Origin: Eledone cirrhosa
Lineage: Eukaryota
Direction of reading: 5' to 3'
DNA: 64,000 bases
Assembly: GCA_964016885.1 (NCBI GenBank)
Contig: OZ024743.1
Coordinates: forward strand, 115,816,001-115,880,000
Each line of letters starts with the position of its first letter. Position 1 is the first letter of the stretch. A program made the translations under genes and the position numbers. Below, piece by piece: positions 21,376-62,855 of this stretch. The notes below the pieces were generated by a model, which saw only the letters and a list, made by a program, of their open reading frames with translations, was not told the origin of the DNA and did no database searches.

Positions 21376-21619
21376 ATATATATATATATATATATATATA
21401 TATATATATATATATATATATATATATATATATATAATAGGATATGTGTTCCTTCACGCACAAGGCGCTAAGGGACGCATGTATTGTCCAACCAAATGCC
21501 AATGTGGTTCAATGGCAGGTTAATAAATTAACGAGCCAGAACATATATAATCAAGGTTTAGCAAATAATGAAAAAGTTTCAAAATAAATTTTAAAAAATT
21601 GACTTTACCTACTATAGTT

Positions 21620-21702
21620 ACATTTACCGATCGGTTTCGAATCTCAAAAATAAACGGAGACCATACGGCCTTCGTTGCAAAGAAAGATTCTCGTCAGAAG
21701 GT
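21620..21702 (-). ncRNA. Type I hammerhead ribozyme (inverted copy)
   Basis: The minus strand reads acctt-CTGACGA-gaatct...agattc-GAAA-ccgatcgg-TA-aatgt. Confidence 0.85.
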
Positions 21703-22151
21703 TCTTTTCATTCGAAGAATATAAAATTCTTCGAAACCGATCGGTAAAGGTAACTATAGTAGGTAAAGTCAATTTTTAAAAATTTATTTTGAAACTTTTT
21801 CATTATTTGCTAAACCTTGATTATATATGTTCTGGCTCGTTAATTTATTAACCTGCCATTGAACCACATTGGCATTTGGTTGGACAATACATGCGTCCCT
21901 TAGCGCCTTGTGCGTGAAGGAACACATATCCTATTATTACTAACCTCCTCTATGTTGAGAAAAAATTTGGTCGTTCCGACTGCTGCAAGTGATAGTGGCG
22001 GCCGATTTGACCTACCTCGCTCTGCCTCTATCTTTACTTCGGCCCTTGAAAAAATTGATTCCACTTCATTCACTCTCATCTCGGGGACAGTTTTGGATAG
22101 CGCTAGTTCGTAATTTAAATTCAAGAATTTTATATTCTTCGAATGAAAAGA

Positions 22152-58900: not shown

Positions 58901-61900
58901 ATCCCATTCAATGATTACATGACATTCTGCAATTCGTCTGTACAAGGATACTAATTTTAAGCAAATTAAAATTAAAGTTTTAGGTTGATTAAAACTAAAA
59001 CCAAATAATAAATATATTTCCAAAATGTATATTAATTAGGTCTATAATACTAAAAATTCTTTCTCCGTCATAGGATACATGATATTATTTTGTTATATTT
59101 TATCTGTAAAAGAATTATAATAAAAAAAATTATAGTAAAAGGTTAAAATAAATTAAAATTAATCTATAAATTAAATTACTGAGTATATATTAGTAATATT
59201 TAAAGGTTTTTCAAAATTTATGATTACATAATATTTTCTCATCTGTAATAAAATATTAATTAAATTAAATTTATAGGTTAACTAACATTTAAATTAAATT
59301 AAATTCTAGAATAATGTTATTAATTAGGTTTATAATATTTAAATGTTTTTTTTAGTTTATGATTACACGATATAATTAATTCCTGTCTTTTATTTAATAA
59401 GATATCCCTAGACTTCATTATTTCAAATAGTTCTTGGGAACATAATCTACATTCCTTTCTATTATTTTGATAAGGGGTGGCTCTTTTGAGCACACTCCAG
59501 GTCAAATCATATTTTATATTTTTATTTTTATAACTATTGATTTTTTCTGCTAGAGATGTTGTATTAGCCAGTGCGGCATTTTTAAAGCTATGTTTGTGGG
59601 TATTATACCTTGTCTTAAAATTGTTAGAGGTAGCTCCTATATATGAGCAAATAGAATCTTTAGTTTTAACATTACATTTATAGACTATGTTGTTAACAAG
59701 ACAATTCCCTTTTAATGGGCAGTTTGTTTTGTTTCTACAGTTACATCCTTTCGTTAATTCTGTATTTGAGGAGATATTATTGTTAATTTGATGTACTGGT
59801 GGTATACTTATGGTTTTCTTACATTTATATGCATTATATGCACTTATATTTTGTTTTATGTTATTTGTTGTAGAGTATGAGAATTTAACTGTAGACCTAT
59901 TTAAGATTTGATGGTATTTGTGGTTTGGCGGGAAGTTTTTCTCAAGGATATAAAAAAATTTTTTAGCAATATTATCCTTAACTTGTAAATTAAAAGGAGC
60001 ATTATACCAAGTAACTCGTCTATTACGGTTTCTATGTTGTTTATTATTTTTATTATTTTTATATGTTGTATCATGATTTTTACTAGGAGGATTAATGTTA
60101 ATGATCTCACCACAACTATTTTTAGTTATATTTGTAGATTTAGGTGTTTTATCTTTTTTATTAGGAGTTTTATTATTAATATTTATTATAGTCGTATGAT
60201 GAGTAGTTTTTTGAGGGTTACTATACTTTATATTAGAAGATTTAGTATTTTGGGGTATACTGTGGGTGGCATTTAGGTGTGTACTTTTCATTTGGTGTTT
60301 GTTGGTAATATTATGCTGTATGCTTTCAGTATTTTTAGTAGAAGGTATATACTCTAATCTATTTTTGTGGCCACTTCTATCTAGAGCTTCATTATAAAAG
60401 GTCGCATTTTTATCAAATACATCTTGGTTAGAAGAAAGGTTAGAAATTCTAAGTGATATATTATATGCAAGGTTTTTAAGGATAGATTTAGGGTGATTAG
60501 ATTGTGAGTGTATGTAATGTAAGTTTTGGTTAGGTTTATGGTAAGGTTGGTATATACCCGTAGCTAAATCTAAAGTTATATCCAGGAAATTTACTACTTT
60601 ACTTGTTTTTTCAAAAGTAATATTAAGATTATAATAGTCTTTAAGGAAAGTTCTAATATGCTTTTTGTTTTTTTCGATTTCTGAAAGGCTAAGGTTGTTA
60701 GAAAGAAGAAGACAGTCATCACGATATAAACCACCTTTGAGGTGGGGAAAAGAGGCATTTATGTTGAAAAGGAGAAAGAGGCCCACAAGATCAGTAATTT
60801 GGGCGGAATCGCTTGAACCCATAGTAATGTATATATATGTATATGCGTGGTTGTATGTATGTGTATATGGGTTCTGTATATATTCGTATGTCTCTCTATT
60901 TATATGTTTATCTTCATATCTATGTGATATATGTGTGTGTGTGTGCATATATGCATATGTATGTGTTTGTGTGTGTTTGTATGTGTGTGTGTATATATAT
61001 ATGTATTTGCGCACACTCACATACACATATATATATATATGTATATGTGAGTGTGTATGTGTGTCTGTGTGTGTGTGTGTGTGTGTATGTGTATATATGT
61101 GTGTATATATATGTATGTATGTATGTGTATATATATAGATATATATATATATATATATATATATATATATGTGTATATGGGTATTTATGTGTGAATATAT
61201 GTCTTTATTCGTATGTGTGTATTTATGTATGTATATGTTTAGGTGTATGTATGTATGTGTATGTATGTGTGTGTATATATATATGTATATGTATATATGT
61301 ATATGTGTGTATATATGTATATATATATATATATATATTATTCTTTATTATTATTGTAATATAACTTATGTGTATATGTGTATAAGTGAGGTTGTGTATG
61401 TATATATACTATGTGTATATATAAGAGTAATGAAATATATATATATATGTGTGTGTATATTTGTGCATGTCTGTTTTTTATGTGTGTGTATATATATATG
61501 TGTATGTGTATATATGTGTATATGTATATATATATATGTGTACGTGTGTGTGTGTGGATGTGTATATATATATATATATATATATACATGTGGGTGTTTG
61601 TATGTATATTTATGGTGGTATGAGTGTGGGGATATATATGTTTGTATATATATGTGTATATGTGTATATATATATATATATATGAGTCTATGTGTGTGTG
61701 TATATATATGTATATATATATATATATATATATATATATATGTGTATGTGTGTATGTGTTGCGCGTGAGTGTGTGTGTATTTATATCTTTTTATATGTGT
61801 ATGTGTATGTTCGTGTAAATGTATGTGTGTGTATGACAGTATAGGTATGTGTATATGTATGTATGTGTAGATATCTCTATGTGCGCGTACATGTATGTAT

Positions 61901-62855
61901 GTGTATGTATATCTGTATGTGTATGTACATTTATTATATTTTATTGTTTTTATTTTTATTTTTTTATTTTTCTTAATTTATAGATACATTTATTTTAGGC
62001 TGTCTGGTCTGACAATCTAATACTGACCCCTCCCCCCCCCTCCCACCTAATTTCTGTATCTTGATCTTGAAATGTGTGTACCAGTGTTTTTATGTGAGTG
62101 ACTTAATTTCTATTTGCTTATGATTTTATATCCACATATATAAATGTGAGTGGGGGAGTGTGTGTGTTTGTATGTTCGTGGTTATGTGTATATTTATGCA
62201 TATACGCACATGTATGTGTGATTATACTGATATGTGTGAGTATGAAAAAAATATATTTATATGCTTGACTCCATAAGTATCTTTGCGTATCTTATCAGCG
62301 CATTAAGCTTACAGAGATATTAACCTTGAAATTTTGTGTTTACATCCATCTTTTTAGTATACACATACAAATTATACACACATTATTGTAAAATATGTGT
62401 AAGGTTTTTGCATGTATATACACACACCAAACTGCTTTTTACCCTTTGTGTTTTCATTGGTCAATTTTGAACTGACATTTTGAATTGTTGTTATTATCAA
62501 TAAATATACTTCATTATTTCTGAAGACGGCGTATATATGAGTTAGGTATGTATATTTAATCTTGATAATTTGTATAATTTTGTATAATTTTGTACATAGA
62601 TCTGTTAAATATGCATACCAATTATAACACATATATGCCCTAGAAACGATCGTTAAATAGTGAACTTTTTTTGTTTAATATAAGGAATTGTTTGTTCATT
62701 ATTTGTTTAATATTTTATCTTGACTCTGTATACCGTTTATCTTTCACCGAAAGTGGATTTTCATTACATCTCTTCTTTCCATGATATCCGGAATACATTG
62801 AGTTCTTCATACGGATTGGACACTACCGTAAACTCTTGGTAGATTTATCTACATA
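55950..62855 (-). mobile_element. 5'-truncated family-1 PLE (55950-60828, minus) joined to a 2.03-kb inverted duplication of its 3' end (60827-62855, plus)
   Basis: Arms 55950-57840 and 60827-62718 are near-identical reverse complements (mirrored ORFs in the track); (TA)n on both sides. Confidence 0.93.
59320..60828 (-). pseudogene. 5'-truncated PLE ORF (from ITMGS to the stop), otherwise uninterrupted
   Basis: About 15 substitutions in ~500 aa relative to 44796-47237; the track N-terminus (60829-61026) is microsatellite from the inverted arm. Confidence 0.9.

Follow-up and report, generated by a model that had tools for sequence, protein, structure and literature searches.

The Window and Its Coding Element

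The window analysed here is a 64,000-nucleotide (nt) stretch of contig OZ024743.1 from Eledone cirrhosa, part of a 3.0-Gb animal assembly that is rich in (TA)n. It holds copies of a coding retroelement, family 1, which by its motifs is a Hydra-clade Penelope-like element (PLE), as well as a second PLE family and several non-coding units with hammerhead ribozymes. This report concerns the two ends of such insertions, which we call P (the proximal end) and D (the distal end), and how reverse transcription might produce them. Signed positions are counted from the predicted hammerhead cleavage site. Family 1 is represented by two long copies and one solo pseudo-long terminal repeat (pLTR); the coding copy includes an open reading frame (ORF) for a reverse transcriptase (RT) and a long 3' untranslated region (3'UTR).

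44308..44411, minus strand: copy A, short inverted arm that covers +98 to +201 and ends at D in (TA)n, with 2 nt of microhomology at the junction
44410..51292, plus strand: copy A, long arm, starting near -30 of the 5' pLTR, spanning the ORF and the microsatellite-rich 3'UTR, and ending at P (+64) of the 3' pLTR
44796..47237, plus strand: 813-aa ORF of copy A, divergent RT plus C-terminal GIY-YIG-like endonuclease, Hydra-clade motifs
51085..51238, plus strand: type I hammerhead in the 3' pLTR of copy A, with a long stem II and palindromic AACGATCGTT; predicted cleavage after 51228
55950..57840, minus strand: copy B, inverted arm, ending at P (+64) and reaching about -1827
57841..62855, plus strand: copy B, long arm that ends at D (+201), with a partial ORF plus 3'UTR; cleavage predicted after 62654
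~26953..27310, plus strand: solo pLTR, beginning near -138 and ending at D; a 7-nt P arm may precede it

The two arms of copy B are 99.84% identical across 1892 nt. The solo pLTR, nested within the (TA)n of the family-2 3'UTR, ends at D as the first-pass annotation of this DNA had it; its initial ATAAAAT fits the 7-nt P arm suggested there, and is too short to serve as proof.

The 813-aa ORF reads, by motif, as a single frame with RT followed by a GIY-YIG endonuclease. It is accompanied by tandem or inverted pLTRs with a hammerhead and a tail, as in PLEs that carry an endonuclease (EN+). Its motifs are RWR37, DKT115, YRDD, CNCRNKANC673 (CxCX5C), IVY..YIG, CRLC771 (CxxC), and CNH799 (CxH), and they are kept in most of 29 long homologues. 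This is the Hydra-clade set (PMC8557442), with the RWK motif seen as RWR and DKT in place of DKG, and the (TA)n insertion also agrees. Naiad/Chlamys identity was ruled out: the endonuclease is C-terminal rather than N-terminal, and a canonical hammerhead is present. The protein has no Pfam match. It has thousands of relatives; of 22 close homologues, three matched RVT_1 and three GIY-YIG, weakly and below the Pfam cut-offs. A metagenome scan with the protein returned no relative, and a PDB sequence search nothing meaningful.

Hammerheads were called by motif scripts. By these calls those in the window are type I with a palindromic stem III; among the 150 Rfam matches listed of 211 there was no hammerhead, and those listed were TA-driven microRNA noise. 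In copy A (51229-51278), a copy of the stem-I 5' strand lies at +41 to +50. The 10 nt immediately 3' of the cleavage site are able to base-pair with it, and the resulting alternative hairpin would turn the ribozyme off. A similar alternative fold in the 483-nt unit described below closes immediately before P.

Paired Ends of Family 1 across the Genome

A genome-wide pattern search for exact family-1 ends joined to TA found 3911 D and 1938 P junctions, and none with reversed controls. In a census of contig C1:1-108 Mb, where both end lists are complete (100 D and 45 P), every outward-facing pair of ends no more than 15 kb apart was D+P (32/32). The first-pass annotation had proposed a genome-wide tabulation of this kind for each family, with one P and one D per insertion as the supporting outcome, and the census gave that outcome. 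When labels were permuted over the 33 pairs within 20 kb, D+P pairs averaged 14 and never exceeded 25 in 200,000 runs; the 33rd pair (D+D, 17.6 kb apart) proved to be two distinct D+P insertions.

Short palindromic copies give the same picture. Gap patterns, which differ slightly in stringency between the two classes, found 668 D+P and 2 P+P copies genome-wide. This count covers D+P and P+P, while D+D was assessed in the 108-Mb census (0 among 100 D ends) and at hand-read loci. Neither scattered ends nor arms that usually end at the same site, the contrary outcomes foreseen at the outset, are the pattern in family 1.

Not every insertion has the two arms first described. Among the first 16 unpaired D ends, nine had a variant P arm, seven were single-armed, and none was D+D; a further hammerhead family (21148-21375, below) is one-ended. 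A query neutral with respect to ends returned 30 loci, comprising 12 D+P insertions (20 loci), one tandem array (four loci), and six loci with one end visible. Twenty long D-ended copies were fetched as well: 14 were D+P, three single-armed, and three unresolved. A head-to-tail array of at least four family-1 units of 6.9 kb lies at L128-L131 (C1:420.37-420.40 Mb).

Paired Ends in Other Families

The window contains five further relevant families.

25037..25265, minus strand: family-2 PLE, inverted arm, ending at P (+58)
25266..28095, plus strand: family-2 PLE, long arm, with a decayed ORF (endonuclease end), 3'UTR and pLTR; hammerhead with predicted cleavage after 27952; ends at D (+143)
21434..21731, minus strand: 483-nt retrozyme-like unit, inverted arm, -106 to +191 (D)
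21730..22311, plus strand: 483-nt unit, long arm of 1.2 units that ends at P (+82), with cleavage predicted after 21746 and 22229
29637..29682, minus strand: 529-nt unit, short inverted arm, ending at P
29682..30380, plus strand: 529-nt unit, long arm that ends at D (+176), with cleavage predicted after 30204
23651..25000, strand not assigned: 431-nt hammerhead unit; inverted arm 23651-23699 ends at D (+276), and about three tandem units end at P (~+217)
21148..21375, plus strand: negative-case hammerhead family, predicted cleavage after 21281, one fixed end at about +93

The decayed family-2 ORF is 43% identical to family 1. The 483-, 529-, and 431-nt units are non-coding tandem units with one type I hammerhead per unit, as non-LTR retrozymes are. 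End positions in the window agree with those first reported: +64/+201 in both family-1 copies, +58/+143 in family 2, +82/+191 in the 483-nt unit (TA ambiguity included), and about +58/+176 in the 529-nt unit. In the last, P lies at +58 to +61; the +55 seen in the window copy results from a 7-nt duplication. The 431-nt unit was not in the first-pass list; its D end in the window joins LINE sequence that is not TA.

Hand-reading of fetched loci extended the rule to all four. D+P insertions numbered 12 for family 2 (one of them off-site); 10 for the 483-nt unit, plus two with an off-site or interrupted arm; 13 for the 529-nt unit, plus five with one off-site arm; and 12 for the 431-nt unit, which also gave one P+P and one D+D. 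Several 431-nt copies have an off-site arm, and four end in internal TA tracts. A head-to-tail array of at least 12 units of 485 nt (L056-L060/L257, C1:149.20 Mb) still has P and D ends.

As a blind check, the flanks of all fetched loci were scanned for further inverted hammerhead pairs. Two with one end unseen, five rows already counted, and three rows joining different insertions were left out. All 12 new insertions with both ends visible had unlike ends, and they include six families that were never queried. The negative case behaves otherwise: in 29 of 30 loci of the 21148-21375 family the single end falls at +92 to +94, and the family has no inverted arm.

Three other origins for the D+P copies were considered. 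An assembly fold-back artefact is rejected, as the two ends and their flanks differ. Two independent head-to-head insertions are rejected as well: there is no TA at the central junction, the arms share a haplotype, and no tail-to-tail pair lies within 2 kb. Spread of a short palindrome as one unit is unlikely, given 15 distinct junctions in 20 copies. The P+D pattern is therefore real, near-obligate among two-armed insertions, and common to more than 10 families in this genome. The signature first noticed in the window, two sites on opposite strands common to PLEs and ribozyme units, holds genome-wide in family 1 and at the loci read in the other queried two-armed families.

Geometry of the Arms

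The paired arms very probably reflect priming from both DNA ends at two programmed sites, whether the template was one RNA, two RNAs, a circle, or in part a folded-back cDNA. Here the first-pass annotation stands: there is one site per DNA end, and the long arm may carry either. The readings differ in what was copied, and the geometry of 42 family-1 insertions bears on this.

First, the D arm runs past the P site in 39 of the 42, so the geometry is not that of L1 twin priming, as had been proposed from the window. In L1 twin priming, reportedly described by Ostertag and Kazazian in 2001, both target ends prime one RNA, giving a 5' inversion joined by microhomology. The likeness is that both target ends would prime cDNA on one RNA. 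In L1, however, the second primer lands at a variable internal site upstream of the first cDNA stop, and overlap is scant; here the second site is fixed and the arms overlap, in family 1 by up to about 6 kb (the first estimate, 1.9 kb, was too low).

Second, the P arm is contained within the D arm in 25/42 insertions, and in 16/42 the arms are mutually non-nested, each with sequence absent from the other. Simple fold-back fails because of these 16. They also strain the published account, in which priming is single, self-priming, possibly with an antisense template, yields the inverted arm, and endonuclease resolution yields the tail (PMC3846280; PMC8557442). Nested arms are what that account expects, and palindromes at the central junction are seen here too. 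Nonetheless we consider it very unlikely: in vitro, the ends of the tail are sites of RT initiation (PMC11167929), and the endonuclease would need two fixed sites in the unrelated sequences of more than 10 families.

Third, the 5' stops are not uniform. They fall between -160 and -125 in 31 of 84 family-1 arms, with both arms there in 14/42 insertions. The hotspot, at about -141, coincides with the 5' strand of hammerhead stem I (-144 to -135; window 51085-51094) and presumably marks the 5' end of the RNA. In the commonest class of short family-1 copies both arms stop at about -141, and thus both were primed within the same pLTR. Hotspots lie at -126 to -153 in the 483-nt unit and at +6 to +19, immediately past the cleavage site, in the 529-nt unit; the latter hints that cleaved RNA sometimes serves as template.

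Such sharp hotspots (the family-1 arms and the 529-nt unit) imply linear RNA ends, which makes a circular monomer or tandem multimer, with P and D in different repeat units, an extremely improbable general template. Moreover, the 668 short D+P copies require both sites in one pLTR. A template of this kind would suit the long arms that span cleavage sites, with at least 12 units of 483 nt or at least four of 6.9 kb, and circles have been proposed (PMC4209133). It would also suit locus L084, whose D arm resembles the previous unit of the P arm (1/281 differences, versus 5/176). For some tandem copies it is compatible with both DNA ends priming on one RNA.

Outside the hotspot, both arms stop within 10 nt of each other in 4/25 insertions (permutation p=0.0004), and exact co-termination occurs at arbitrary positions (+763/+762 and +1279/+1279). 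In the other 21 the arms stop independently. Shared stops (14/42 in the hotspot, 4/25 elsewhere) raise a hybrid possibility, in which P and D are both primed and one cDNA stays short, while the long cDNA folds back and copies itself, the short cDNA finally capturing the strand so made. In that case the overlap would be DNA-templated, the RNA having been copied once over most of its length. This would account for arm identity, for junctions with iterated slippage at L246, L110, and L242, and for rare P+P loci with mirrored flanks, which resemble fold-back continuing into host DNA. We nevertheless regard it as quite unlikely. The 5' ends of the two arms often lie 0.5-5.9 kb apart, which would demand very large fold-back loops, and where the D arm is the long one (for example at L091 and L109) the distal polymerase still got past P.

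The junctions themselves could be read against a near-identical reference in 21 family-1 cases (22 further scored rows, diverged from the reference, were dropped, and six gave no score). Nine have 1-6 nt of microhomology and 12 have 1-7 extra nucleotides, so the microhomology of about 2 nt reported from the window describes a minority of them.

One Source Haplotype per Insertion

Family-1 copies differ enough for the source of each arm to be traced. In the hypervariable 3'UTR, the partner arm is the nearest neighbour in 18/18 long insertions (with one tie). In the younger subfamily group, 0-7 edits separate the 3'UTRs within an insertion, versus 3-29 to the best other copy. Subfamily sites of partner arms agree in all 38 valid comparisons; an apparent discordance at L238 was an alignment artefact of its short D arm. 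In 20 position-ordered short copies, the arms differ by 0.55 positions within and 6.3 between insertions, per ~195 nt. Finally, the tail found on the D arm alone matches the subfamily of the P arm in 57/59 cases, the others being one without the sites and one ambiguous at an indel. This last linkage does not come from conversion between arms, because the tail is present on the D arm only.

With one source haplotype per insertion, the best fit is a single RNA on which the two DNA ends prime at different sites. The first-pass annotation had held that the overlaps necessitate two RNAs or a circular or multimeric RNA; they do not, since one RNA copied twice with strand displacement suffices. Likewise, the palindromic stem III that it took as fitting an RNA dimer is no evidence for two RNAs, since two ribozymes of one tandem transcript can pair through it in cis (PMC4209133).

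Each DNA end might instead copy a different RNA within an asymmetric complex, for example a stem-III dimer in which one RNA presents P and the other D. Kilobase overlaps would then need no strand displacement, independent stopping outside the hotspot (21/25) would be natural, and every hammerhead found does have the palindromic stem III. Yet if two RNAs chose their sites independently, D+P could make up no more than half of the pairs, so extra asymmetry is needed to exclude P+P and D+D. Both RNAs must also come from the same locus every time (18/18 nearest neighbours; the tail linkage), and co-termination at +763/+762 and +1279/+1279 is unexpected from independent RNAs. We therefore judge this arrangement unlikely. 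With two sites on one RNA, by comparison, all insertions are D+P by construction, provided that the distal polymerase displaces the proximal cDNA.

Proposed Mechanism

What the insertions display directly is ends that come in pairs at fixed positions, arms that lie head to head and overlap, and one source haplotype for each insertion. From this sequence pattern we put at roughly 55% the probability that both 3' ends of the cut (TA)n prime reverse transcription on the same RNA molecule, yielding one P and one D. A protein dimer would bind one RNA and cut both strands of the palindromic (TA)n. One DNA end would then prime at P and the other at D, through 2-5 nt of U-A pairing; the positions of P and D would depend on the structure of protein and RNA, not on TA content. 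Both polymerases would work along one segment of the RNA, and the distal polymerase would displace the cDNA made from P. To our knowledge, no RNase H motif has been described for these RTs. There is precedent for displacement in the R2 RT, which displaces DNA or RNA from RNA or DNA templates (PMC4117753). Each polymerase would halt at random or on reaching the 5' terminus of the RNA (in family 1, near -141). The cDNAs would then be joined at their 3' ends by short microhomology or a few added nucleotides, and each joined cDNA would template the second strand of the other. The P-to-D segment, present on one arm only, would be the classical tail, here 56-137 nt. Failure of the second priming would leave a single-armed, 5'-truncated copy, and the non-coding units would be mobilised in trans by the same machinery.

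P and D are not fixed by primer complementarity alone, since each unit contains longer alternating TA tracts that seldom serve as 3' ends. TA microhomology as the sole determinant is rejected on this ground, the four 431-nt copies that do end in such tracts notwithstanding. The sites of the 483- and 529-nt units share a weak similarity (4/300 shuffles).

Several points weigh against priming of one RNA by both ends. Apart from that similarity, comparison of P and D between families turned up no shared sequence or fold. Exact D junctions exceed exact P junctions (3911 vs 1938), an excess due partly to P-side sequence variants. Four loci (L233, L271, L272, L217) are P+P, with the host flank mirrored beyond the element; these look like fold-back or later inverted duplications, and for near-perfect ones such as L271 an assembly artefact is possible. 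One locus, L230, is D+D with flanks that are not mirrored. Shared 5' stops could also arise by fold-back of one cDNA. Gene conversion could homogenise short palindromes; in the 431-nt unit, however, arms differ by 3.8-4.2% versus 4.6% between insertions, so conversion is not pervasive there. Subfamilies may differ in their period of activity, and one cell may express one source locus, so that haplotype identity cannot tell one RNA from two sister RNAs.

Relation to Known Systems

Inverted pLTRs and a tail of 30-40 bp, often at one end only, have been described before (PMC8557442; PMC3846280; PMC2377424), and earlier accounts invoke self-priming or endonuclease resolution to explain them. The described Hydra clade elements are generally <3 kb with a tail of 30-40 nt (PMC8557442), whereas family 1 is 6.8 kb with a long microsatellite 3'UTR, and the tails of the PLEs here are 85-137 nt. 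In the Hydra-clade text consulted (Craig et al. 2021; PMC8557442), the tail is ascribed to endonuclease resolution, and no pairing rule appears.

The closest biochemical parallel is the anole PAc Poseidon element, for which both target strands are cut and extended in vitro and a dimer is predicted (PMC11167929). Two internal RT initiation sites flank its tail, without strand preference, and ribozyme cleavage is unnecessary. Two internal initiation sites bounding the tail and extension of both strands are what is proposed here too; the PAc sites, however, are adjacent, whereas those here lie 56-137 nt apart. The main text of that report makes no connection between these sites and either the paired ends of one insertion or the inverted arms, and for the second strand it proposes synthesis by the ordinary route (PMC11167929).

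Non-LTR retrozymes, whose non-coding units measure a few hundred nt, stand in tandem and carry a type I hammerhead, have been put forward as non-autonomous derivatives of PLEs (bioRxiv 10.64898/2026.07.22.740005; PMC4209133). The published link to PLEs is one of distribution and pLTR phylogeny, and no discussion of junctions or priming was found in the accessible text of the preprint (bioRxiv 10.64898/2026.07.22.740005). The units here, by contrast, show the PLE integration signature itself (target, inverted arm, and P+D), with little or no sequence similarity to the PLEs of the window.

Neither near-obligate P+D pairing nor its use by retrozymes was found in the literature searched, which did not extend to subscription journals and supplements; PMC9977147 contributed nothing on this point. 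Two papers state the PLE integration route, the inverted pLTRs, and the one-sided tail as open questions (PMC8557442; PMC11167929). We read the pattern as a variant of target-primed reverse transcription in a known class of element.

Other Features of the Window

Another hammerhead family lies at 20105-21147, with stem III ATATATAT and a short inverted D arm; the window copy is broken by a 394-nt palindromic insert (20582-20975). At L247 this ATATATAT family has P at about +55 and D at about +150. Tandem units of 659 and 562 nt with hammerhead-like motifs lie in (TA)n at 28774-29616 and 31625-32258, and relatives of these at L251 have two arms with unlike ends. Inverted and direct repeats at 62877-64000 include a minus-strand hammerhead-like motif (cleavage near 63025), with no relative among the fetched loci. 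A 140-nt palindromic insert (51323-51462) directly follows family-1 copy A, and a GC-rich tandem repeat with a unit of roughly 172 nt occupies 53172-54815. A non-LTR retrotransposon at 4449-8703, with AP endonuclease, RT, and zf-RVT domains, is unconnected to the finding.

Implications

The P+D rule ties two-site initiation in vitro to the structure of genomic insertions, and would explain both inverted ends and the one-sided tail. It makes sharp predictions that can be tested in the existing in vitro system. The junctions are also evidence that retrozymes of animals rely on PLE machinery, and annotators gain a simple rule for finding where these elements, very abundant in this genome, end. 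A broader proposal, which we advance tentatively and with some doubt, is that double first-strand priming may be the normal route of EN+ PLEs: a dimer would copy one RNA twice, the inverted pLTR and tail would be its footprint, and retrozymes would move by carrying both sites. If this is true, reverse transcription produces the two ends of each insertion, without any need for a dedicated 5'-joining step.

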